Positions 630 through 55,387 of a stretch of 64,000 bases of DNA are shown here, one piece after another. How positions within the stretch are numbered: the first letter of the stretch is position 1; the number at the start of each line of letters is the position of its first letter. The translations under genes and the position numbers were made by a program. This stretch comes from Promethearchaeota archaeon (GTDB taxonomy: Archaea; Asgardarchaeota; Lokiarchaeia; Sigyniarchaeales; SOKP01). The notes below the pieces were generated by a model. The model was not told the DNA's origin. It saw only the letters and a program-made list of their open reading frames with translations, and did not search any database. The stretch is from assembly GCA_016926735.1 (NCBI GenBank), contig JAFGOA010000066.1, positions 1 to 64,000 of the forward strand. The letters are read 5' to 3'.

Positions 630-3290
630 ATGAATAAAAGATATTGTCTGAAAATATTTAAGTCATTTCTTATAATTTTACCTCTTTTAATTACTTCAAT
701 CATTACTTCTATTAATTTCAGCATCATTAAATCAGAAGACAAAATTGAGATTAATTATGTTCCAGATGTTCCCACATTTAATTATATCGAACCAAAGAAT
801 AATGCAATTCTTCTTCAAGCAGAAGATTATGATAATTGTTATGATACAACACCGGGTAACCATGATCCACTAGCAGGGTTTTATAGACCAGATGATGATG
901 CAGATATTAGTCAAAACTTCTATTTTAACAAAAGTAGTATTGATTATGTGATGGCTCCGAGTTATAAAATTTCTAATATTGAGGCTAATGAATGGCTAGA
1001 ATGGAATGTGGATTTTAAAGTTCCAGATTGGTATAATTTTATTATTCGTCTTACTGGAGAAGAAAACGCCAAAATTCATATTGAAATAAATGATAATTCT
1101 GTGACTGATATTATTGATATTCCAGCAACAGGAAATAAGGAAACATGGTGGCAAGATTTTAAAACACCTTCAGTTTTTATCAATTCAGGAGAAAAGAGAG
1201 TTAAGATTGTTTTTGATGAGGTTATAAGTGGAACATTAGCATTTGATTATATTTATATTATCTCTGCAACACATCCCCCTGCAAAATTACTTTCGGATTC
1301 TGATTTTATTGTTGATTTTGGGCCTTCACCAAGTGCTCCAGAAGGATATATTAAACCAGTAGAAACATATGGAGATTTAAGAGTTGATGGCAATAAAATT
1401 GTTGGAAAGAATGGTCTTCCTATTCAATTCAGAGGATTTGCCTCTCATGGTCCTCAATGGTTACCATGGATTCCTGATTATACAGCTCTTAATTTAGCAT
1501 ATAATTTCGGGGCAAATATCTTAAGATTAACGACCTATATTAGTGAAGGAGTTGCATGGGAGAATATAGAGATGAGACCCGTTATAGATCATATTACTGA
1601 AGAAATTGTAAAAGATTGTATTGAGGCAGGAATATATGTTGTAATAGGATTTCATCAACATGCTAACACTTCAGAATTGCTAAATTATGTGGATGATGCT
1701 AAAGTTTTTTTTGAGCATTATGTTCCTATGTTTGGTGGCTATTCAAATGTTATTTTTGAAGTTTTAAATGAACCTGTTGGTATTGTGGATGGAAAACCAG
1801 GAGTAGATTGGTCTACAGCTAAGAATTATGCAGAAGAAATTATACCCAGAATAAGGGAACTAGATCCAGACGATGATAAAAATCTAATTTTTGTAGGTAC
1901 TCCAACTTGGTGTCAAGATCCTCATACAGCAATAACAGATCCTATTGAAGATGAAAACATTGTATATACATTTCATGTATATGCTACAGCTCATGATATA
2001 AACCTTCAAAATAATATTGATAATGCTCTAAGAAAGGGATTTCCAATTATTGCAGATGAATGGAGTCCTGGTCATTGGAATTGGCAAGAAAATCCAGATG
2101 TAAATTGGGATAATGCAAATAGCTGGATTGATTTTTGGGAAGCAAGAGGAATAGGTTGGATTGATTGGAGTTTTAATATCAAAAACGAACCATTATCAGC
2201 TTTAGTTCCTAATCAATATTTAATAGCAGGATTTTGGAAAAATGATCAATATTTAACTGACATCGGAAAATATATCCGCGATAAAATTATGTCTCCATAT
2301 AATTCTTGGTGCTATAGTGAGGATATTAACTTAGGCTATTTTTCCCAATCAAATGGAAATAATATTGGATTTGCGGATGTTTTAGTAAAAGATGAAAATG
2401 GAGAAATATTACCAAATGCAGAAGTAACTCTTGAATGGAGTGGTGCTTTTAGAGGTTCAACTAAAAAAATCACAAATAACAAAGGATTAGCTATTTCAAA
2501 TACACTTGAACTCCCAGAAAATGGGCAAATAGTTACAAATGGATATTTTTCAAATGGAAATTTTCTTAAAGGTTTAAAATCATGGACAACATCACAATCT
2601 TGGAGCCCTATCGCAACTTTCAATGTAATAAATAAAGAACTTGTAGTGGACATTATAGAAGCAGGAAATAATGACTGGGAAGTCCAGCTTGTACAAAGTG
2701 GCTTAGCAATTGAGGTTGGTTTTGAATACACAGTAAGTTTTGATGCGCGAGCAGAAGACATTCGTGATATATCTGTTTCAGTTGGTGAAGAGGGAGGGAA
2801 TTATGCCACATATGGAGCACGCACGTTAACATTAACAACTGAAATGACCCATTATGAATTTACTTTTATGATGGAACAAGATTCAGATTTGAATGCACGC
2901 CTTCAATTTAATATGGGATTGGATATAAATGATGTAATAATTAATAATGTATTATTAAAAGGAATTCACCCTAATTTAACATCTGAAGATCTCATATGTA
3001 GAGTTATTAATATTATTAAGAGTGGATATACACAAGATCCATCAAATATGAATTCTGAAAATACAAATACTTTAGCGATTAGTACATCTGAAGTTATGAT
3101 AGGTGATGTAAATGAAAATGGTCGAGTTGATATAATTGATTCATTACTTATACAACAATATTATGAAGGAAAAAATGTAATAATCAATTTAACAGCTGCT
3201 GATGTAAATAATAACGGAATAATTGATACTATAGATGCCTTGATTATTGCATTATATTATTCAAAATTAATAACAGAATTCACCTCTTAG
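630..3290 (+). CDS. Secreted/anchored multidomain GH5 glycoside hydrolase: signal/TM, CBM6-like, GH5, Ig-like with CBM4/9-like, dockerin
   Basis: Hydrophobic N-terminus; LQAEDYD..EWLEW (CBM6-like); GH5 motifs RGFASHG, FEVLNEP (acid/base), FHVYA, IADEW (nucleophile); NGNF..WEVQLVQ..YTVSFDARA (CBM4/9-like); GDVNENGRVDIID/ADVNNNGIIDTID dockerin. Confidence 0.85.
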   Translation: MNKRYCLKIFKSFLIILPLLITSIITSINFSIIKSEDKIEINYVPDVPTFNYIEPKNNAILLQAEDYDNCYDTTPGNHDPLAGFYRPDDDADISQNFYFNKSSIDYVMAPSYKISNIEANEWLEWNVDFKVPDWYNFIIRLTGEENAKIHIEINDNSVTDIIDIPATGNKETWWQDFKTPSVFINSGEKRVKIVFDEVISGTLAFDYIYIISATHPPAKLLSDSDFIVDFGPSPSAPEGYIKPVETYGDLRVDGNKIVGKNGLPIQFRGFASHGPQWLPWIPDYTALNLAYNFGANILRLTTYISEGVAWENIEMRPVIDHITEEIVKDCIEAGIYVVIGFHQHANTSELLNYVDDAKVFFEHYVPMFGGYSNVIFEVLNEPVGIVDGKPGVDWSTAKNYAEEIIPRIRELDPDDDKNLIFVGTPTWCQDPHTAITDPIEDENIVYTFHVYATAHDINLQNNIDNALRKGFPIIADEWSPGHWNWQENPDVNWDNANSWIDFWEARGIGWIDWSFNIKNEPLSALVPNQYLIAGFWKNDQYLTDIGKYIRDKIMSPYNSWCYSEDINLGYFSQSNGNNIGFADVLVKDENGEILPNAEVTLEWSGAFRGSTKKITNNKGLAISNTLELPENGQIVTNGYFSNGNFLKGLKSWTTSQSWSPIATFNVINKELVVDIIEAGNNDWEVQLVQSGLAIEVGFEYTVSFDARAEDIRDISVSVGEEGGNYATYGARTLTLTTEMTHYEFTFMMEQDSDLNARLQFNMGLDINDVIINNVLLKGIHPNLTSEDLICRVINIIKSGYTQDPSNMNSENTNTLAISTSEVMIGDVNENGRVDIIDSLLIQQYYEGKNVIINLTAADVNNNGIIDTIDALIIALYYSKLITEFTS

Positions 3291-18135: not shown

Positions 18136-19101
18136 TCATATTTCAGAATTATTTGGCAATAATGCTTTAAGCAAATTTCTATCCCATAACTTAGTTTTTA
18201 AATTATAAATCCCAAAATCTTCATCACAAAAATTCCAATATATCCAAATGATATTTCTCTTTTCTGCTTCTTCTCTAATGAATTTTGTCCACCTAACTCT
18301 CGAATTATAATCTGCTTTTGAAATTACTCCAAATTCCCCTAAGAAAAGGTGAATATTATTTTTATTAGCCCAATCTAAAGCAAAATCTAAAGCTATATTG
18401 ATTGTTAACCTTTCTTGGGTTGTTCCGTGCCATTTTGTACCCAACCATCTATCACTATTTAGTTCCCAATTTGCTCCTTGATGTGTAAATTCAAAAGGAT
18501 CATAAAAATGAAAAGTAACTAAAATATTAGCATCATTTTTCGGTACTTCTAACATATTTAAATGCCTTAATTTATTAAAAAATACAGGACCGTATATCAG
18601 CGTTCTTTTAGGATTAGTTTTTCTTATAATAGGAATAATTTTATCAATAAATTGATTCCATAGATATGGATTTCTATCAAAAGCATTACAAGGTTCATTT
18701 AAAATTTCAAAAAATAGATTATTTGGATAATTTTGATATCTTGTAGATATTTGTTCCCATAGCGATAGAAGCCTCTCTTTATGAATTTCAGGAGAGTTCA
18801 TAATCTCTTTATAGTGATGAATATCGATGATTACTATTAACTCTTTTGATAAGGCATTTTGAATTATTTCATCTATTCTTTCAAAAAAAGAGGGATTAAT
18901 TGTATATGGTGAATTAATATCTGCATGGGCAGACCAGCGTATAGGAATTCTAACTAAGTTAAATCCAACATTTTTTACAAGGTCGAAGAAATAGTTTTGA
19001 AATGTTATTCCCCACTCTCCTTCATTTGGAGCGTCTAACATATTTCCCAAGTTAATTCCACGTAAGTTATGTAAAAATTCTTTATCATTATTTGAGTTCA
19101 T
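18136..19101 (-). CDS. Cytoplasmic GH5 endoglucanase (Thermotoga Cel5A-like)
   Basis: RGINLGNMLDAPNEGEWG, RIPIRWS, DIHHY, EILNEP, FHFYDPFEFTHQGA, LGEFG; likely ATG 19101, no signal peptide. Confidence 0.88.
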   Translation of the reverse strand: MNSNNDKEFLHNLRGINLGNMLDAPNEGEWGITFQNYFFDLVKNVGFNLVRIPIRWSAHADINSPYTINPSFFERIDEIIQNALSKELIVIIDIHHYKEIMNSPEIHKERLLSLWEQISTRYQNYPNNLFFEILNEPCNAFDRNPYLWNQFIDKIIPIIRKTNPKRTLIYGPVFFNKLRHLNMLEVPKNDANILVTFHFYDPFEFTHQGANWELNSDRWLGTKWHGTTQERLTINIALDFALDWANKNNIHLFLGEFGVISKADYNSRVRWTKFIREEAEKRNIIWIYWNFCDEDFGIYNLKTKLWDRNLLKALLPNNSEI

Positions 19102-19316
19102 ATTATAAATAATGAAAGGAGAAAAAAAAGGATAGATATATTTTTTTTTGTTGGTTTTACTTTTTTTTTTAATATTATTTATATGTATATTCAAAGGTTT
19201 TTTTTAAAGGCCTTTTTAATCTTAATTATTCTGTTAAATATAACATCAGACTTTTTCTCTTTATTAAAAAGAATAATCTTTTTATTAAACAAGAAATCCT
19301 CTTTCAAAATAAAATT

Positions 19317-20539: not shown

Positions 20540-21157
20540 TTAGTTTTCAATTAATATAACCCTTGCGGGAGCTCCATCACTTTCAATTTTTAAAGGTAAT
20601 CCAATAAATAGATACTCTCCAGATTCAATTTTTGATAAATCAAGACCCTCAAACAAAGTCATATTATCAATAATAATTTCATGTACTTCATCATCATTAC
20701 CAAATTTTTTAACACTCAGATAATCAACACCCAAAGTCTTTATTTTTTTTTGCACTAAATATTTAGCAGCATTAAATTTAATATGAATAAAGTCCTTCCG
20801 AAAATCTTGATAACCCTTAATAGAATTTTCTGTTTTTAGAAGAATAATATCATCTTGATTTATTGAAAATTTCTCTAAATCTTTTCTGTATATTGCTGAT
20901 GTTATATAAGTTAAATCAAATACTTTACATTTACCATAAAAACTTTCTAAAGGTAATTTATCTGCGAAATATCCCTCATTTCTTATATGTCTTGGAGAAT
21001 CTACATGAGTACCGGTATGACAACCAAATTTTATCCAAGATTCATTAACTGATTTATTTGGAATAGAGGAAAATTGAAATATTGATACTTTTTCATTTCC
21101 AGGATATACTATTGTATCTTTATTAATCTTTAAAGAAATATCATGAATTTTAACCAT
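20540..21157 (-). CDS. Cyclase family metal hydrolase (kynurenine formamidase-like)
   Basis: HTGTHVDSPRH, GVDYLS, DGAPARV motifs. Confidence 0.9.
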   Translation of the reverse strand: MVKIHDISLKINKDTIVYPGNEKVSIFQFSSIPNKSVNESWIKFGCHTGTHVDSPRHIRNEGYFADKLPLESFYGKCKVFDLTYITSAIYRKDLEKFSINQDDIILLKTENSIKGYQDFRKDFIHIKFNAAKYLVQKKIKTLGVDYLSVKKFGNDDEVHEIIIDNMTLFEGLDLSKIESGEYLFIGLPLKIESDGAPARVILIEN

Positions 21158-21250
21158 ATTATTTATTTATTTTTATATTATTAGAAAAATTTTATTGCTA
21201 TAACATGTCATTAGTAAAAATTATACCCGCGCAAGGTTATTCAACAAATA

Positions 21251-21285
21251 ACATCCTCAAATAGGTTTCTTATTTGAATCATTAT
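21251..21285 (-). promoter_or_regulatory. Candidate eukaryote-like SECIS element in a 3' UTR
   Basis: Minus strand reads AUAAUGA-UUCAAAUAAG-AAAC-CUAUUUGAG-GAUGU: AUGA/GA core, about 8-9 bp stem, apical AAA. AUGA starts 10 nt after the stop of a gene with an in-frame UGA. Confidence 0.7.
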
Positions 21286-21292
21286 AAAATAA

Positions 21293-22234
21293 TTATTTAC
21301 TACAGTTTCTAGCTCTTAATTTATTTAGTTTTTGTAAAGATTCTTCAGGGATATTTCTCTGCTTAGATTTTATATTTCTATTAACTTGTTTAAGATAATT
21401 TATTGCTTTTTTTTTTCCATTCGATATATTTTCAAAAAGTTCTTTTTTATTATCTCCTCCAGAAATCGTTAATGCAGTCTGAAAACTTTTATTAGGTTTT
21501 AGAGTCTTAAATTCTATTTGAAGTGCAGATAAGATTTCTCCAGGAGAATTATGTAATTTATTTGATAATTGTGTTTTTTCTTTATTTATTGCAAAGTCTT
21601 TTGTCAAACTAGATTCAAAATATGTCGATTTTGAAATTAATGAAAAACCAGCATACAAACCAGAAGAATCATACTGAAATATTGTATCAGAAGCATTATC
21701 GTAATTAGAAAAATCATTATCAAAACCATCTAACCCGTTAATATCAAAATCAAAAATAAAATAGATATTAAAATCATAGAAATTATAGTTTGATTGATTT
21801 TTAAATGTAAAATATGTATTAAGATATGGCAAATTTGGTTCATGAAAAACATCTATGTATAATCTTAAGACTTGATTTTCTTCTATAATTTTTGTTATCA
21901 AATTTTTTATCTTATTTTTGGAATGTTTTTTAAAATATTCACCAAGATCAAAATCTAAAGTTATTCGATCAATTCCTTTTCCAGTTCTAGTATTGATTAA
22001 TTGATAAACCGGTGTTGGTTCTATATTCTTAAGAATTATTAAAACAGGTTCTAAACCCTTCTCTTTAACTTTAAAACTAACCCATGGACCAGCTAATTCT
22101 TCTTTGGAGGAATATAAAATATGTTTATTGTTATACGTTAATTCTTTTATTGAAAATCCCATTAAATAGCCAGATGAATTTCAAAGAGCTAAGATATTAT
22201 TGAATTTAACATTGAGAGAATTTAAATTTATCAC
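21293..22234 (-). CDS. Uncharacterised protein, candidate selenoprotein (in-frame TGA at 22181-22183; 313 aa from GTG 22234)
   Basis: GTG/RBS at 22231-22235 opens (M)INLNSLNVKFNNILAL-UGA-NSSGYL-MGFSIKE..., in frame with the 289-aa ORF; SECIS-like hairpin downstream. Confidence 0.65.
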
Positions 22235-22321
22235 CTTTTTTTAAAATTAACCTCCTTTTATTATAATTGATTAATATATTGGTGGAATCTATAAAAATAA
22301 ATGTTTTAAGAAGTAATTTTA

Positions 22322-29399: not shown

Positions 29400-32300
29400 A
29401 TGAGATTGAAAAATATAAAAACAGGAATTTTTATTTTTCTTATACTTTTAGCTGCAACTTTTTTTAGTTCATATTTAATTAATAGTATTTATTTCAAGGA
29501 TAAGAATAATGAACTTCCTGTTGAAATAAATTTAAAATCTTCAACAACTTTGGGTAGGACAATTGGAGGTTTAGATATCAATAGAATTGGCTATGGGATT
29601 ACATATTCAAATAATATTGTATATATTGCAGGAACTTCAGGAATATTTTATATCGATGTTTCAGATGCGACTGATCCATATCTAATTGGTGAGTTTACAA
29701 CAGAAGTAAGTTGTGAGGATGTTTTTGTTATTGGAGATCTTGTATATGTGGCTGATGGACGAGATATTGCAATAGTTGATTTTAGTGATATTAATAATCC
29801 AATAGAAATAGGAAGAACATATTGTCCTTCAGACGCTTTTGATATTATAGTCCATGGGAATTATGCCTATTGTGGATCTTCACGAGCTTTTACTATTTTT
29901 GATATCTCTGATCCATACAACCCTATTCTTCTCGGTCAAATGAGCCTAGATTCACGTCTTTATGAGATGAAAATACAAGATAATATTGCTTATATCGCAG
30001 GATCCTTTGGATTATATTGTATAGATATTTCTGATCCTCGAAATCCAGCAATCATGGGAAGTATAGACGTAAGTTCAGACGCCCTTGATATAATTGATAA
30101 TATTGCGTTTATAGGACAGTATGGTGCGCTTATATATATTGATATAAGCGATCCTTATAATCCAAATATAATTGGTAGTATTAATACGGCAGGAAAACCT
30201 TTAAATATAAAAATTCAAGAAAATATTTTGTATATGGCAGGATTTTATGATGGAATTGCATACTATGATATAACTGAAAGAACAAATCCTAGATTATTAG
30301 GATATATTGAATTGCAAGATATGGAAAATGGATATTATGTATATGAATTATCTATGAGTGATGATATTTGTTACGTTGGTGTAGGTAATTATGGACTTCA
30401 ATGTGTAGATATTACAAATACTCAACTAGCTATGGGAGTTAGCATTGGAATTACACCATATCACGAAGAAGATTTCATTATTCAGGATAATATTGCTTAC
30501 ATTGTCGGGAATAGCCTTACATTATTGGATATTAGTGTTCCCCTAAATCCAGTACGAATAGCTGAACTTTATCTTCCATCAAATGCATATAATATTGTTT
30601 TAAATGGAAATATTGCAATTTTAGCATGTCACGATAAAGGAATACAATGTGTAGATGTAAGTGATCTTTTTAACCCTATATTGATAGGAAATTGCAATGT
30701 TTCTGGAAATGCTAAAAATATCAAAGTTCAAAATAATATTGCTTATATTGCATGTCGTGATATGGGCATAAGTATTGTTGATATTACAGATCCCTTCAAT
30801 CCCTGCTTACTAACAGAATATTATACACAAAGAACGGCACTTTTTGTTGAAATTCTTGATAACACACTCATTATTGGTGATGATTTAGGTTTATTATTTG
30901 TCGATATAACCAATCCTTTAGAACCAGTTACAATTGGTACGTATGATGATTTAGGATATACAGATTATTTTACTATTCAAGATAACTATGTCTATATAAG
31001 TGCATCTTCAAGATATACTATCTTAGATATGCAAGATCCAACCAATCCTGTTTTTATTGGGAGCTATAGTACAGGTTTTACAGGTGCATCTATAAAAATA
31101 TATAATAATGATATATATACTGCTGAATTCTCAGAAGGGGTTGTTCATTTAGATTTCAGTGATCCTTATAATCCTTCTTTTGAAAGAAGATATGATTCAT
31201 TTGGAGAAGCAAGGCAAATAGAAAGAAAAGAAAACTATCTTTACATACTAATTGAAATAGGATTACAAGTTATTGATTTAAATTATCCTATTCTTCCAGG
31301 AAAAACTTATCTTAAAAATATAGAATATAATAGTCAAACAGGGGACGTTCATTTGCAATGGACTGAAGCTTTAAATACAGAAATTTATGCAATATATCGT
31401 GATACTTCTCAAATAATAGAGATTAATGATGATATACAATTAGTTTCAACAACAAATAATCTAGAATATATTGATAATATAAAAGAGGATGGAACCTTTT
31501 ACTATGCTATTACAACAACAAATAATGATGGTGTTGTTTTATCAAATTGTCGTGAAATTAATACTATTTTCTTAGGTTTAGTTTCTCCGAAATTAGCACC
31601 AATAGTTCCATTTCCCTCTACAGATGGAAAAGTATGCTTAACTTGGAATCATGTTCCTAGAGCAGAAGAATATCTTGTATATAGATCCACATCACCAATT
31701 ACTCAAATAGATGATGGGGTGATACTTCTTGCAACTCAAACAGAAACAATGTTTATTGATATGATAACTACAGATGGTATGTATTATTATGCTATAATTG
31801 CTCAAAATGCAATGGATACCTCTTCAATATCAAATTGTGAAGTTATAGACGTATTAATTACCCCTCCTGAAGAAAATACACCAATTGAACATCCAAATAT
31901 TCCCTTTATTGATATTATTTTAGAACCCTTATTGCAATATGATATAGGAATGGATATATGTGTTGACGATCTGGGAAATCTTTATGTAGTAGGAATGGTA
32001 ACTGATTTAAATACAGGAGAATCGGATGTATATCTGTTTAAATTTAATATTATGGGAGAAATAGTCTTCGAATGTACATGGAGTTCAGGTCCAAATGAAT
32101 ATGCAACCGGAATTGCCCTTGATTCAAAAGGAAATATCTATGTTACGGGAACAACAGATAGTGGTTCTGGAAATAATAATATCTTTCTCCTAAAATATAA
32201 CCCAAATGGTGAATTAATATGGGATCTAATATGGGGATCAGAGAATAATGAAGAAGGAAATGATGTAGTAATAAATTCTAAAGATGATATATTTGTCACA

Positions 32301-33203
32301 GGAATAACAAATAGTTTTGATTTGACTTCTACAGAAATTTGTTTAATTAAGATTAATCCATCAGGTAATGTTGATTGGTATAAAACTTGGGGAACTAATA
32401 ATGATGATATAGGAAATGCTTTAGTGATTGATAATTTAGATAATATCTATATTACAGGAACAGCAAATAATGATGTATGTGTATTGAAATATAATTCAGA
32501 AGGAATTTTGATTTGGAGCATGGTATGGGGAGGTGAAAACATTGATTCAGGACAAAGTATTGCTATGAAAAGTTCATCAGATTACATTTATATAACAGGA
32601 TCTACACAAAGTTATGGAAGTGGAACATCAGATATATTCCTTCTTAAATTAGGTATAGACGGACATTTCTATTGGGCAGTAACATATGGTGATGAAGGAT
32701 GGGAAGGGGGTAAAGACCTTACAATTGATTTATTTGGAAATATTTATATTATTGGAAATATTGGAGAACCTCCTTCACATACGGGAATTGTGATCCTAAA
32801 ATTTAGACCATCAGGTACTTTAGTCTGGAATTATATTATAGAGCAAGAGACTCAAACAAATATTGTAGCATCTACTCTCTCTTTTGCTTCAGAAATTAAT
32901 TCAGATAATCTAATGGCTCAGAGTATTTGTATTGATAATTTTGGAGCTGTATTTATAACAGGAAGTTCAGATTCTTCAGATAACCTAATGTTAAATAAAA
33001 TCGAATATTCAGATGGAGACCCAAAAATGGGTGATGTAAATGGAGATGATACTGTTAACATTATTGATGCATTATTAGTTGCGCAATATTATGTTGGATT
33101 AGAACCTTCTGAGTTAATACATATAGAACTTGCTGATGTTAATAACGATGGAATTGTTGATATCGTTGATGCTTGGCAAATTGCGAAAAATTTTGTGTCT
33201 TAA
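29400..33203 (+). CDS. Large surface protein: signal/TM, LVIVD repeats, two FN3-like modules, SBBP-like beta-propeller, dockerin
   Basis: Repeated (Y/C)xDISDPxNP units; LQW/LTW..Y.IYR..YYYAI; GNIYVTG..FLLKY repeats; GDVNGDDTVNIID/ADVNNDGIVDIVD. Confidence 0.82.
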   Translation: MRLKNIKTGIFIFLILLAATFFSSYLINSIYFKDKNNELPVEINLKSSTTLGRTIGGLDINRIGYGITYSNNIVYIAGTSGIFYIDVSDATDPYLIGEFTTEVSCEDVFVIGDLVYVADGRDIAIVDFSDINNPIEIGRTYCPSDAFDIIVHGNYAYCGSSRAFTIFDISDPYNPILLGQMSLDSRLYEMKIQDNIAYIAGSFGLYCIDISDPRNPAIMGSIDVSSDALDIIDNIAFIGQYGALIYIDISDPYNPNIIGSINTAGKPLNIKIQENILYMAGFYDGIAYYDITERTNPRLLGYIELQDMENGYYVYELSMSDDICYVGVGNYGLQCVDITNTQLAMGVSIGITPYHEEDFIIQDNIAYIVGNSLTLLDISVPLNPVRIAELYLPSNAYNIVLNGNIAILACHDKGIQCVDVSDLFNPILIGNCNVSGNAKNIKVQNNIAYIACRDMGISIVDITDPFNPCLLTEYYTQRTALFVEILDNTLIIGDDLGLLFVDITNPLEPVTIGTYDDLGYTDYFTIQDNYVYISASSRYTILDMQDPTNPVFIGSYSTGFTGASIKIYNNDIYTAEFSEGVVHLDFSDPYNPSFERRYDSFGEARQIERKENYLYILIEIGLQVIDLNYPILPGKTYLKNIEYNSQTGDVHLQWTEALNTEIYAIYRDTSQIIEINDDIQLVSTTNNLEYIDNIKEDGTFYYAITTTNNDGVVLSNCREINTIFLGLVSPKLAPIVPFPSTDGKVCLTWNHVPRAEEYLVYRSTSPITQIDDGVILLATQTETMFIDMITTDGMYYYAIIAQNAMDTSSISNCEVIDVLITPPEENTPIEHPNIPFIDIILEPLLQYDIGMDICVDDLGNLYVVGMVTDLNTGESDVYLFKFNIMGEIVFECTWSSGPNEYATGIALDSKGNIYVTGTTDSGSGNNNIFLLKYNPNGELIWDLIWGSENNEEGNDVVINSKDDIFVTGITNSFDLTSTEICLIKINPSGNVDWYKTWGTNNDDIGNALVIDNLDNIYITGTANNDVCVLKYNSEGILIWSMVWGGENIDSGQSIAMKSSSDYIYITGSTQSYGSGTSDIFLLKLGIDGHFYWAVTYGDEGWEGGKDLTIDLFGNIYIIGNIGEPPSHTGIVILKFRPSGTLVWNYIIEQETQTNIVASTLSFASEINSDNLMAQSICIDNFGAVFITGSSDSSDNLMLNKIEYSDGDPKMGDVNGDDTVNIIDALLVAQYYVGLEPSELIHIELADVNNDGIVDIVDAWQIAKNFVS

Positions 33204-37124: not shown

Positions 37125-38243
37125 ATGAATGAAGTATTTTCGAATTCCTTAAGTATCGGTTTATTATTATCTATAGGATTTAGTATCATTGTTATTTTTT
37201 ATTTAATTCTGAAAAAAAAAAAATATGGGACACCCTTTATCTCAATATTATTAATCTCTATAGTATTTATCATTGGTATTCTTTATCAAATTATTATATA
37301 CTTTTCTTTAAATTCTCATTTATCTGAAATAACAAATAAAATTTTATTTAAATTTGTAATAGTTATTGAAAGTTCTATAGCACTATTAAGTGTGATAGTA
37401 TATAGTTTTCTTAAACAATATGGAAAACTACCAATATTTTCCTTGTTGTTCCTCATATTCATATTCAGTTTAATAATTGGAACTTTAATATCAGAGGATT
37501 CTATTAATATGTATATTATAATTGATTCTTCTATACATTATTCTTTTAATTTAACAATTAAGATTACAAGTCTCTTATTTAACATTTTTATAATAATATT
37601 TATAATTCGAACTATAATAGATATTAAATCGATTATAGAATCACGAAGTTTCATTCTTGTATTTTATATATATACATTTATTCTATTTGCTTCTCTGGGT
37701 TTTTTTTTATTTTATATTATTATAGAATTAATTGAAATTAGATTTTTATCTGTTGTATTTTGGTGGATTTTTGTAGTCCTAAATGGAATTATCATTATTT
37801 CAAAACCAGAATTATTTTTAAAATTTTCTAATAAAATATTTATCATTCATATATACCATAAAACAGGAGTTTTGCTATATTCATATCAATTTGAAAAATC
37901 ATCTGAAAATATTGGAGAATCTCAAATATGGGGAAATATCCTTATAGGACTTAATCATATTCTTTCTGAATTTACAAACAAAACTGATCAAATTGATATT
38001 CTTCAGACAAAAAATGCAGATATCTATGTTAATTACAGTAATAAATATGGATTTGCTATTCTAGTATTAGTAAATCATAAAAATTCTTATATAGAACATT
38101 CTGTTAAAATATTAACCAAAGATTTTAAAGAATATTACAAAGAAGAATTATTAGAATTAAGAGATATAAATAAAATCATAAATGTTTCAGAATTTAAAGA
38201 AGCAAAAAGAATAATAGAAAAAAATTTTAGCCTATATCTTTAA
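37125..38243 (+). CDS. Multi-TM (about 7) protein with C-terminal longin-like domain (tandem paralog)
   Basis: IYHKTGVLLYSYQF..GLNHIL..INVSEF mirrors the preceding gene. Confidence 0.7.
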   Translation: MNEVFSNSLSIGLLLSIGFSIIVIFYLILKKKKYGTPFISILLISIVFIIGILYQIIIYFSLNSHLSEITNKILFKFVIVIESSIALLSVIVYSFLKQYGKLPIFSLLFLIFIFSLIIGTLISEDSINMYIIIDSSIHYSFNLTIKITSLLFNIFIIIFIIRTIIDIKSIIESRSFILVFYIYTFILFASLGFFLFYIIIELIEIRFLSVVFWWIFVVLNGIIIISKPELFLKFSNKIFIIHIYHKTGVLLYSYQFEKSSENIGESQIWGNILIGLNHILSEFTNKTDQIDILQTKNADIYVNYSNKYGFAILVLVNHKNSYIEHSVKILTKDFKEYYKEELLELRDINKIINVSEFKEAKRIIEKNFSLYL

Positions 38244-41597: not shown

Positions 41598-41702
41598 TGC
41601 GGAAAGGGAGATTTGAACTCCCGAAACTCCTATGAGACTGGATCTCTCAGAGAATCATCTCTTCTGAGTCCAGCGCCTTTGACCAGACTTGGCAATTCCC
41701 GC
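41598..41702 (-). tRNA. tRNA-Leu(CAG) with a 19-nt intron at 37/38 (41644-41662)
   Basis: Acceptor GCGGGAA/TTTCCGC-A, anticodon stem CTGGA/TCCAG, long variable arm, T-loop TTCAAAT; canonical BHB (CTCA/TGAG helix, GA|A and AG|A bulges, GAGA/TCTC intron stem). Confidence 0.93.
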
Positions 41703-53596: not shown

Positions 53597-54133
53597 ATGA
53601 AAACTCACGAAGAACATAAATTATATGGACCAAAAAAAGTCAATATTGCATTAGTTGTTGTAAGTACAAGTCGATTTAAAGAGCTGAAGCTTAATATAGA
53701 TACAACTGATAAAACTATTCCTTTAGTTAAGAAAATTTTAATGAACAAGAATGATATTATTTTAAAAACAATCAAAATTATACCCGATTCCAAAGATTAT
53801 ATTTTAAATACTTTAGATTTATTACTTAAAAAGAAAGAAATTAATTCTATAGTTTTTAGTGGTGGTACTGGATTATCAAAAAAAGACATTACTTATGATA
53901 TTATTCAACCAAGATTGGAAAAAGAAATCCTTGGATTTGGGGAGATATTTAGATTTTTATCATACCAAGAAATTGGCTCTTCATCAGTTTTGTCAAGAGC
54001 TACTGCCGGAGTAATATTTAATAAGGTTATTTTTTTATTACCTGGATCTCCAAATGCTGTCAAATTAGCGTTCTGTAAAATAATAATTCCAGAAATTAAA
54101 CACATGACTTATATAATTAATAAAAAAGAATGA
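53597..54133 (+). CDS. moaB: Molybdopterin adenylyltransferase MoaB/Mog
   Basis: VSTSR, SGGTG..DIT, GFGEIFR, SRATAG, LPGSPNA. Confidence 0.92.
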   Translation: MKTHEEHKLYGPKKVNIALVVVSTSRFKELKLNIDTTDKTIPLVKKILMNKNDIILKTIKIIPDSKDYILNTLDLLLKKKEINSIVFSGGTGLSKKDITYDIIQPRLEKEILGFGEIFRFLSYQEIGSSSVLSRATAGVIFNKVIFLLPGSPNAVKLAFCKIIIPEIKHMTYIINKKE

Positions 54134-54139
54134 GATTAT

Positions 54140-55387
54140 ATGAATAGATTACATCAAATAGGATTTTCAAAATTATCTTCAGTTGAAGATTCACTAAAAA
54201 AAATATTTTCTGTAATTGGATTAACATCTATAATTCAAATTAATACTAAAGATGCTTTAAATCATAATGTAGCTAATAATATTAAAAGTATTGCTGATGT
54301 TCCTTATTTTGATAGATCTGCTATGGACGGATATGCTATAAAGGCAGAAGATACATTTGGAGCTTCTATAAATTCACCTAAATATTTTAAAAAAATTGGA
54401 AAGATAGAAATAGATGAACTATCAAAAATTACAATAAATTCCTTTGAAACAGTAAAAATATCTACAGGTGCTCAAATTCCTGATGGGGCCAATGCCGTGA
54501 TAAAAATTGAGGAAACTGAAATAAAAGGAAATACCATTAAAATCTATAACTCCATAGTTCCTAATGCAAACATTTCTAAACGTGGAAGTGATACAAAAAA
54601 AGGAGAAATCATCATTGAAAATGGTATTCAAATAAAACCAGAACATATAGCATTATTATGTTCTCAAGGTATTCAAAAAATTAACGTAAGAAAAAAACCA
54701 AATATAAGTATTTTCTCCACAGGAAATGAATTAATAGATATAGAAAATACACGTGAAGGTCGACAAATATATGATTCTAATACGCCTATGATCTCAAACT
54801 TAGTTAGAATTTATGGTGGGATAGTAATTGAAGAAAAAATTATTAGAGATAATAAGGATTTAATAAAAAAAGAATTATTAGATGCCTTAAACAAATCAGA
54901 TATAATTATCTTTTCTGGTGGTACATCAGTAGGAACCAGAGATTATCTTCCAGAAATAATGAATCAAATAGCAAAAGTATTAATACATGGTGTTGCTATG
55001 AGACCAGGAGCGCCAATTTTAATTGCAACCAAAAATAATAAGTTAATTTTTTGTTTACCCGGTACTCCAGTTGCTTCTTATATCGGATTTTTGATATTTG
55101 TAGGACCATCTATAAAAAAAAAAATGAATTCAAATATATTGGATCCAAGAGAAAAATGTGTTGCCATAATTAATCAAGATGTTCCTGTTTCTTCTATGGG
55201 ATATATACATAATTTAAGAGTTAAACTAGAGTTCATTAAAAATTCTCTAGTTGCTATTCCAATCAGATTAAAAGGATCAAGCCTAATAAGTTCTTTAACA
55301 AATTCCGATGGAATTGTTGAAATATTACCCTTTCAAGAGGGAATAAAAAAAGGAGATAATGTAATTGTAAAATTACATCCAAAATGA
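54140..55387 (+). CDS. moeA: MoeA (copy 2)
   Basis: FDRSAMDGYA, STGNEL, SGGTSVG..D, RPGAP, LPGTP. Confidence 0.92.
   Translation: MNRLHQIGFSKLSSVEDSLKKIFSVIGLTSIIQINTKDALNHNVANNIKSIADVPYFDRSAMDGYAIKAEDTFGASINSPKYFKKIGKIEIDELSKITINSFETVKISTGAQIPDGANAVIKIEETEIKGNTIKIYNSIVPNANISKRGSDTKKGEIIIENGIQIKPEHIALLCSQGIQKINVRKKPNISIFSTGNELIDIENTREGRQIYDSNTPMISNLVRIYGGIVIEEKIIRDNKDLIKKELLDALNKSDIIIFSGGTSVGTRDYLPEIMNQIAKVLIHGVAMRPGAPILIATKNNKLIFCLPGTPVASYIGFLIFVGPSIKKKMNSNILDPREKCVAIINQDVPVSSMGYIHNLRVKLEFIKNSLVAIPIRLKGSSLISSLTNSDGIVEILPFQEGIKKGDNVIVKLHPK

Follow-up and report, generated by a model that had tools for sequence, protein, structure and literature searches.

The stretch of DNA analysed here, referred to as the window, comprises 64,000 nucleotides (64 kb) from a Promethearchaeota archaeon (assembly GCA_016926735.1, contig JAFGOA010000066.1), and all coordinates are positions in it unless another locus is named. 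On its minus strand lies an annotated open reading frame (ORF) of 289 amino acids (aa) at 22162-21293, and the subject of this report is the candidate selenoprotein gene that is obtained when this ORF is joined, through an in-frame TGA codon, to the open frame preceding it. Reading along the minus strand, the locus begins with a Shine-Dalgarno-like GGAGG motif (22255-22251), which is likely the ribosome binding site (RBS) of the extended frame. A GTG codon (22234-22232) follows 16 nucleotides (nt) after GGAGG; no other canonical start lies in frame from the upstream TAA to the TGA, and this GTG would begin the full-length gene. Then come codons 2-17, which form the N-terminal extension INLNSLNVKFNNILAL (22231-22184), the TGA itself (22183-22181), a putative selenocysteine (Sec) codon at residue 18, and six codons for NSSGYL (22180-22163) leading to the annotated ATG at 22162. 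The 289-aa ORF supplies residues 25-313 and ends at TAA (21295-21293); an AUGA tetranucleotide (21282-21279) starts 10 nt further on. The protein of the window holds a single Cys, close to its C-terminus (Cys311), in addition to the putative Sec.

On re-reading the window, the initial annotation of this locus was correct as to the GTG frame, the TGA, NSSGYL, the ATG, the AUGA 10 nt after the stop and the single Cys. It had also remarked that the ATG lacks an obvious RBS, and no Shine-Dalgarno sequence precedes that codon. Its choice of GGTGA as the RBS of the extended frame does not hold up, GGAGG being conserved in all sequences compared and the likelier candidate. As it had stated, TGA is an ordinary stop codon here, terminating 7 of the 50 long ORFs in the window, the sequence of which is 25.8% G+C. 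The nearest upstream in-frame stop is a TGA in 8 of 49 long ORFs, and in 3 of 49 a start-bearing open frame lies beyond such a TGA. Two other arrangements of this kind were seen on the plus strand: the TGA stop of a MogA-like gene (53597-54133) shares its frame with a MoeA gene (54140-55387) that starts three codons on, and a gene of unknown function (37125-38243) has 32 open codons, with start codons, before an in-frame TGA. In the window alone, the layout of the locus, its 3' fold and the descriptor match presented below do not go beyond chance; the signal lies far beyond chance only when 15 related loci are considered together with it.

Conservation of the reading frame across the TGA codon

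These 15 loci (L001-L015) were obtained by one scan of genome contigs, at 56-95% identity, and with the window they make up the 16 sequences compared throughout, in which protein identity ranges from 55 to 96%. Each of the 16 carries GGAGG, which ends 49 nt ahead of the TGA in 13 loci; the gap is 67 nt for both the window and L001 and reaches 70 nt in L002. As in the window, the TGA of 15/15 loci is placed exactly seven codons ahead of the ATG, and translation of its flanks in the 16 sequences gives V-x-F-N-[NED]-I-[LF]-A-x-TGA-N-x-S-G-Y-L-MGFS. The core FN-x-IL-A-x is kept in all 16; the invariant residues include F11, N12, A16, N19, S21, G22, Y23 and L24, and Met25 is likewise invariant. Changes in the extension fall mostly on third codon positions. 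Over the 16 codons before the ATG, the variable sites at the three codon positions number 6, 4 and 14, close to the 6, 4 and 15 of ORF codons 1-16, while the shifted frames of the same upstream region give 4/14/6 and 14/6/3. In the spacer between TGA and ATG, which contains no start codon, the corresponding counts are 1/1/5, and pairwise codon differences comprise 187 synonymous and 52 non-synonymous changes (20/237 and 0/224 in the other frames). Because third-position and synonymous changes dominate in one frame only, both flanks of the TGA are under protein-coding selection, and in that frame alone.

Database relatives of the 289-aa protein number 391; the 120 that are listed have 283-292 aa and cover 98-100% of the query, and all 31 aligned relatives begin at MGFS. 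All listed entries of the TGA clade begin at the internal Met25 because gene callers stop at UGA. The initial annotation had named homologs that begin at MGFS, with nothing conserved upstream, as the pattern that would speak against a selenoprotein; upstream conservation is present, with the TGA kept in 16/16.

A second line of evidence comes from distant homologs. When residues 1-45 of a read-through product were used in a word-indexed search, six candidates came back, none at E<=10, and no close Cys relative bearing the extension was among them. An exhaustive phmmer comparison of the read-through product with 1.84 billion cluster representatives gave 28 matches, and the Cys homologs described next came to light in this search only. 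The matches include proteins of 272-318 aa with 21-29% identity, aligned from query residues 6-9 onward, a stretch that begins upstream of the TGA. A small alignment placed Cys at the TGA position in 7/7 distant homologs covering the N-terminus. A search seeded with one of these Cys homologs gave 41 clusters, and the entries of this Cys clade include NEF87_004727 (Candidatus Lokiarchaeum ossiferum) and DSAG12_02345 (Promethearchaeum syntrophicum), as well as Candidatus Harpocratesius. In an alignment of 90 rows, the TGA column holds Cys in 42/42 Cys-clade rows; of the three other distant rows covering the column, two have Cys and the third has Asn. The residue three positions before the site is also Cys in 41/42 Cys-clade rows, forming a CxxC motif, and is Leu or Phe in the TGA clade; the putative Sec aligns with the second Cys of that motif. 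Both groups also keep a Cys near the C-terminus, three residues from the end (42/42 Cys-clade rows, 16/16 TGA-clade sequences). A quick maximum-likelihood tree sets the 39 rows of the TGA clade on one side of a branch, and likewise the 42 rows of the Cys clade, with SH-aLRT values of 99 and 96.

At the nucleotide level, tblastn with the Cys homolog P0126 aligns in one segment through the TGA of the window (22216-21302), and its match begins at residue 1 in 11 loci. The aligned residue is thus Cys, and not the Trp, Arg or Gly that the initial annotation had associated with a strain-specific nonsense mutation, and a Cys homolog runs across the TGA unbroken, as it had anticipated. Its statement that the protein has no CxxU motif is accurate for the TGA clade (L-A-x-U), although the sister clade does carry CxxC at the site. 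Neither the window nor the loci contain a second paralog by tblastn with five distant homologs (three from the Cys clade and two others). A third small group has CxxCxxC and no C-terminal Cys. In addition, the predictions for two distant homologs, P0130 and P0135, begin just past the Sec/Cys position and keep the C-terminal Cys; they could represent additional members, from other lineages, that are truncated at a TGA.

The alignment with the Cys clade also bears on the start codon. In 13 loci (L003-L015), GGAGG is followed after 10 nt by an ATA codon (2941-2943 in L003, for example), which stands 13 codons (39 nt) ahead of the TGA. Most Cys-clade rows have their initiator Met 13 residues before the aligned Cys, which is the offset of the ATA, and residue 1 of P0126 aligns with the ATA codon in 11 loci. 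From these positions we infer that translation would begin at GTG in the window and at AUA in most relatives. To our knowledge, AUA initiation has no precedent in these organisms.

The element in the 3' untranslated region

Downstream of the stop codon, all 16 sequences share a conserved block in the 3' untranslated region (3'UTR), with AUGA at a distance of 10 nt from the TAA (L014: 18 nt). From the alignment of the 16 sequences and its RNAalifold consensus, the core of a candidate selenocysteine insertion sequence (SECIS) was delimited at 21282-21239 on the minus strand. It consists of an 8-base-pair (bp) stem (UCAAAUAA with UUAUUUGA) enclosing an A-rich bulge, a 3-bp ministem and a 5-nt loop; when the flanking U.U, G.A and A.G positions are added, the order of parts becomes AUGA, a 9-nt stem, the apical region, a 9-nt return strand and GA. 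In the window, these parts are AUGA (21282-21279), the 5' stem strand (21278-21270), the bulge GAAA (21269-21266), the ministem CCU (21265-21263) paired with AGG (21257-21255) around the loop (21262-21258), AUG (21254-21252), the 3' stem strand (21251-21243), GA (21242-21241) and AU (21240-21239). AUGA and GA are invariant in 16/16. Of the paired cells in the alignment, 98.4% form standard pairs, compared with 27-54% when the partners are slid by one to three columns; three pairs have changed on both sides (UA/CG/UG and CG/UA in the ministem, and UA to AU in one stem pair), and the covariation score was reached by 0/500 shuffles.

The conserved stem is part of the minimum-free-energy fold of 15/16 sequences, the exception being the window. 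The hairpin drawn in the initial annotation (UCAAAUA/UAUUUGA with a 7-nt loop and GAU as the 3' partner) is real but specific to the window, being the favoured fold in 1/16; it can form because the ministem loop of the window offers a second partner for the 5' stem strand. In the window copy, the conserved fold has -5.7 kcal/mol and that hairpin alone -3.7 kcal/mol. Moreover, the element does not end at 21251, as had been drawn, and instead runs to about 21233. The proposal of a eukaryote-like 3'UTR SECIS is consequently retained for the AUGA and for a Loki/Asgard-type element, which is conserved in all 16 TGA-bearing sequences, and is revised for the secondary structure, the GAU partner and the 3' boundary. 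For the window by itself, the predicted fold of the 71-nt 3' region is no more stable than those of its shuffles (z = -0.92), and a descriptor of the Lokiarchaeial SECIS (lokiSECIS) matches once in the window, at 21282-21239, dinucleotide shuffles giving a mean of 0.28 matches and at least one match in 24/100.

The element agrees with every feature by which the main text of PMC11227280 describes the type II form of the Asgard eukaryote-like SECIS, this being a fit to descriptors. The core 5'-GA_[G/A]A-3' is represented by AUGA_GA. For the upper stem of 7-15 bp with at most two mismatches, eight standard pairs are found, and among 14 distinct sequences only the window has a stem mismatch (U.U, at the first pair). 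The described ministem of 2-8 bp, bulge of 4-12 nt and loop of 2-6 nt correspond here to 3 bp, 4-6 nt on the 5' side with 2-3 nt on the 3' side, and 5-6 nt; the position within 600 nt after the stop and the folding energy below -5 kcal/mol correspond to 10 nt (18 nt in L014) and to the -5.7 kcal/mol of the window copy. The lokiSECIS features given in the text of PMC4989117 are also seen, namely AUGA, a 9-bp stem, adenines at the apical opening, a closing G preceded by A, GA, and a position near the stop; that text also describes a type II-like lokiSECIS variant on SPS. Furthermore, it reports one lokiSECIS that serves UGAs spanning about 2 kb, and the 899 nt between UGA and SECIS at the present locus lie inside that range.

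Two further features lie in the 3' flank of the core (21238-21205, minus strand). One is a small hairpin of G+C (CCUUGCGCGGG, 21236-21226), which has a GCG loop and recurs with changed stem letters (CUCU/AGAG, CCUU/AGGG, CCU/AGG). The other is the 3' strand of what may be a lower stem (UAAACC/GGUUUA, AAAUCC/GGAUUU); this stem takes in the stop codon and, in 10/16 sequences but not in the window, closes the minimum-free-energy fold.

Predicted protein structure and genomic context

Neither the TGA clade nor the Cys clade gave a match in Pfam, NCBIfam or PDB sequences (Pfam and PDB at E<=1). An AlphaFold model built from 90 sequences has a predicted local distance difference test score (pLDDT) of 91.3 and a predicted template modelling (TM) score of 0.90, and supersedes a poor first model from 16 sequences (pLDDT 62). 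In the later model, the N-terminus is a hairpin of strands 7-14 and 22-34, the turn of which holds residue 18; a beta-rich body and then helices at 263-304 follow. A Foldseek search of the PDB with this model returned GH94 cellobiose phosphorylases, cyclic glucan synthase, GH116, GH15 glucoamylase and galactose mutarotase; for the matches listed, the probability is 1.00, E values lie between 1.7e-9 and about 2e-6, and identity is 9-16%, with query TM-scores of 0.35-0.57 across some 300 columns and of 0.50-0.57 for the GH94 and cyclic glucan synthase chains. Language-model neighbours belong to the same carbohydrate-enzyme families, all with scores below 0.9, and serve as leads only. The product therefore models as a stand-alone beta-supersandwich domain with C-terminal helices. 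Sequence profiles of the GH94-type supersandwich (Pfam PF06165 and relatives) gave no match at E<=1, and the predicted resemblance to GH94-type enzymes is at the level of the fold only; the protein is not filed as a member of that group. The description of a beta-rich protein unlike the known Loki selenoproteins, as given in the initial annotation, agrees with this model and with the absence of Pfam and NCBIfam matches.

Sec may act as a redox or nucleophilic centre, and it is a reasonable inference that residue 18 and Cys311 could be joined by a selenenylsulfide. The invariance of the C-terminal Cys in both clades is consistent with the redox partnership proposed for it at the outset. In the Cys clade, the CxxC of the hairpin turn together with the C-terminal Cys could instead bind metal. 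Ntn-hydrolase-like processing at Sec was also considered, and was dropped since the fold search gives a supersandwich and not an Ntn fold.

The upstream neighbour (23290-22322, minus strand) encodes a fusion of a Roadblock/LC7 domain with a Ras-family GTPase (Pfam Ras 3e-45, Robl_LC7 6e-5). The same arrangement, with an ortholog as the immediate upstream neighbour on that strand, is seen in 14/14 loci with enough flank, the flank of L001 being too short, and the Roadblock-Ras gene ends 37-122 nt before the putative selenoprotein start. The downstream neighbour is not conserved, the cyclase recurring in L001 and L002 only. This strict pairing is a concrete lead on function and suggests a functional link between the two gene products. 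One of the contigs bearing the GTPase-selenoprotein pair of Asgard type, that of L003, is titled Candidatus Nanopelagicaceae bacterium and is nearly identical to L015 (uncultured archaeon); it is probably mis-binned. Elsewhere in the window, three proteins carry a type I dockerin, one with a GH5 cellulase and carbohydrate-binding modules and one with LVIVD/beta-propeller repeats, and a second GH5 cellulase is encoded nearby. These dockerin and cellulase genes, at 88-387, 630-3290 and 29400-33203 (plus strand) and 18136-19194 (minus strand), look like cellulosome-like parts in an apparently Lokiarchaeial genome.

Interpretation and relation to known systems

Based on the results presented above, 22234-21293 (minus strand) is best read as one gene of 313 codons, in which UGA codon 18 would be decoded as Sec by means of a Lokiarchaeial type II eukaryote-like SECIS; we put the probability of this reading at about 0.87. 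Translation would start at the GTG in the window and proceed through 16 codons to the UGA, where Sec insertion would be signalled by the SECIS, with its apical ministem, 10 nt after the TAA. The product would be a beta-supersandwich with Sec in the turn of its N-terminal hairpin and an invariant Cys three residues from its C-terminus. The central proposal of the initial annotation, an undescribed selenoprotein, is thereby strengthened by the TGA in 16/16, the coding flanks, the Cys in 42/42 and the conserved SECIS-like element. Sec insertion itself is deduced from these comparisons of sequence.

Several observations weigh on the other side. The 64-kb window contains no tRNA-Sec, EFSec, PSTK, SepSecS or SelD; Pfam applied to its 50 long ORFs gave no Sec machinery and no known selenoprotein, and Rfam at the gathering threshold found one tRNA and nothing else in the whole window, where ARAGORN found no tRNA. 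In three loci (L005, L008 and L009), no ATG, GTG or TTG lies in frame upstream of the TGA, and an AUA start must be assumed. Within the 3' element, 7/8 main-stem pairs never vary, and the covariation rests on the ministem and one stem pair; a covariance model built from the 16 elements found only its training set in 156,644 bases, with the next best match at 17.2 bits (E = 0.44) and no second selenoprotein gene in those bases, and it thus lends no independent support. Rfam likewise gave no SECIS family match in 21150-21400 at E<=10. This last negative weighs little, because existing SECIS models fail in the same way on accepted Asgard selenoprotein genes, as described in the texts of PMC4989117 and PMC11227280. 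Finally, the structural model is only moderately confident over residues 1-20 (block means 74 and 65). As for the single tRNA (41598-41702, minus strand), it is of class II and has the anticodon-loop sequence CUCAG, read as Leu-CAG, with an insert of about 21 nt (an intron); it was rejected as a tRNA-Sec on account of its class and its anticodon CAG. Among the loci, L011 bears the isolate label "bin41", and the text of PMC13188914 gives "Lokiarchaeota archaeon isolate bin41" as the largest selenoproteome in archaea; the correspondence is one of labels only.

All 120 listed predictions start at or near MGFS, Met25 is invariant, TGA serves as a normal stop in the window, and start-bearing short frames before an in-frame TGA arise by chance (the 3 of 49 ORFs mentioned above). 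These points would suit a different arrangement, in which the upstream frame encodes a conserved leader peptide of its own, 14-19 codons long and with the TGA as its stop, and the 289-aa protein is made without Sec by re-initiation at the ATG 18 nt on. Such a leader would not account for a spacer that shows coding periodicity (1/1/5; 187 against 52) and offers no start codon, nor for the continuous alignment of leader, TGA position and spacer with 42 Cys-clade N-termini; the ATG also lacks an RBS, and the conserved SECIS-like 3'UTR would be left without a role. We consider this arrangement quite improbable. Still less credible, and close to negligible, is the view that the upstream conservation belongs to a structured or regulatory 5'UTR RNA or to a promoter element and not to translation. 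The region is indeed short and AT-rich and lies just downstream of the conserved GGAGG, but third-base changes prevail in one frame only (6/4/14 against 4/14/6 and 14/6/3), amino acids are kept through synonymous codons, and the homology to the Cys clade is at the level of protein.

If the frame is translated throughout, the UGA might be read by a standard amino acid, through a near-cognate or suppressor tRNA, and the 3'UTR structure might serve termination, mRNA stability or a similar role. The lack of visible Sec machinery in the window is compatible with this, as are the lower stem and the GC hairpin of the 3' element, which are absent from published SECIS descriptions. On the other hand, the element has the AUGA_GA core, the stem length, the adenines and the ministem of accepted Asgard SECIS elements, the aligned residue in the homologs is Cys, the classical counterpart of Sec, and the family occurs in Lokiarchaeia, where, according to the main text of PMC11227280, 85.9% of the Lokiarchaeia/Helarchaeales genomes analysed use Sec. 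Read-through by a standard amino acid is thus rated as low as the leader peptide.

Decoding of the UGA as Sec thus remains our preferred reading, and it is very probable, judging from the features compared here, that the gene represents a new selenoprotein family using the known Asgard SECIS mechanism. The main text of PMC11227280 gives seven Asgard selenoprotein families, all found by homology to known families; with PMC13188914, the seven are listed as SelD, FrhA/VhuU, HdrA, FrhD/VhuD, Prx-like, AhpF-N-terminal-like and DsbA-like. The text of PMC13188914 counts 11 archaeal families, and those of PMC4989117, PMC9723677 and PMC11291895 name only SelD/SPS, HdrA, VhuD, VhuU and Prx-like. A supersandwich family is not mentioned in the main texts of these five papers, their supplementary tables lying outside this scope, and neither "supersandwich" nor "mutarotase" occurs in the review text of PMC13188914. 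A literature search found no other paper on such a family; it did not extend to the groundwater study of selenoproteins in metagenome-assembled genomes that PMC13188914 cites. The expectation of the initial annotation that the family is unlike SelD, HdrA and Vhu is in line with its absence from the Asgard lists in the main texts of PMC11227280 and PMC13188914.

The family would lengthen the list of 11 archaeal families given in the text of PMC13188914 and would be a second gene family with a type II Asgard SECIS, a form that the main text of PMC11227280 discusses as a possible intermediate toward the eukaryotic SECIS. A family without annotated residues before its UGA is invisible to homology-based charting of the Asgard selenoproteome; if the proposal is true, at least 120 of the 391 database clusters are N-terminally truncated and lack the likely active-site residue. 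The Cys form occurs in entries named for Candidatus Lokiarchaeum ossiferum and Promethearchaeum syntrophicum, which we take to be cultured Lokiarchaeia, and this would make the biochemistry of the family testable. A more far-reaching version, in which the family is restricted to Asgard archaea, is the first selenoprotein on a beta-supersandwich of the carbohydrate-enzyme type, is started at AUA in most lineages and acts as a Sec/Cys redox switch coupled to the adjacent Roadblock-Ras GTPase, is speculative, and we hold it to be improbable as a whole. If it is true, the redox chemistry of selenium and the GTPase signalling of eukaryote-like type in Asgard archaea would be connected through this switch.

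The TGA and Cys clades belong to one family, are of similar length (304-332 aa in the Cys clade) and have in common a short N-terminal lead that precedes the site and is usually about 13 residues long, the motifs G-Y and G-[FY] on the far side of the site, the DFDI-x-G core and the C-terminal Cys. The two differ in sequence (18-30% identity) and at the site, where CxxC stands in place of [LF]-A-x-U, and the Cys-clade members are ordinary ATG-started genes that are predicted correctly at full length. With the Asgard type II SECIS of SPS/SelD genes, as described in the texts of PMC4989117 and PMC11227280, the present element shares the AUGA...GA core of kink-turn type, a 9-nt stem (U.U plus eight Watson-Crick pairs), the opening run of adenines, the closing A-G, and a 3-bp ministem with a 5-nt loop; as in SPS, it lies a few nt after the stop and would serve a UGA near the N-terminus. 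Unlike that element, compared here through its published descriptors, the present one is found on another gene family, its main stem is almost invariant in sequence, a lower stem that takes in the stop codon and a small GC hairpin lie 3' of or around the core, and the window copy has GAAA in place of AAAAA and one extra U.U mismatch.

The conserved in-frame UGA, the Cys homologs at the same position, the 3'UTR element resembling a eukaryotic SECIS and the occurrence in Lokiarchaeia are shared with the seven Asgard families as presented in the main texts cited above. In contrast to these, the supersandwich family has no Pfam or NCBIfam match, its predicted fold is not thioredoxin-like and is neither an Fe-S nor a hydrogenase fold, and its motif is L-A-x-U rather than CxxU or UxxC. 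In overall fold, the model resembles the N-terminal, galactose-mutarotase-like beta-supersandwich of GH94 enzymes, cyclic glucan synthase, GH116 and GH15; unlike GH94-type enzymes, the protein would stand alone, without the (alpha/alpha)6 catalytic domain, and would add an N-terminal hairpin bearing Sec or Cys, long C-terminal helices and a C-terminal Cys.

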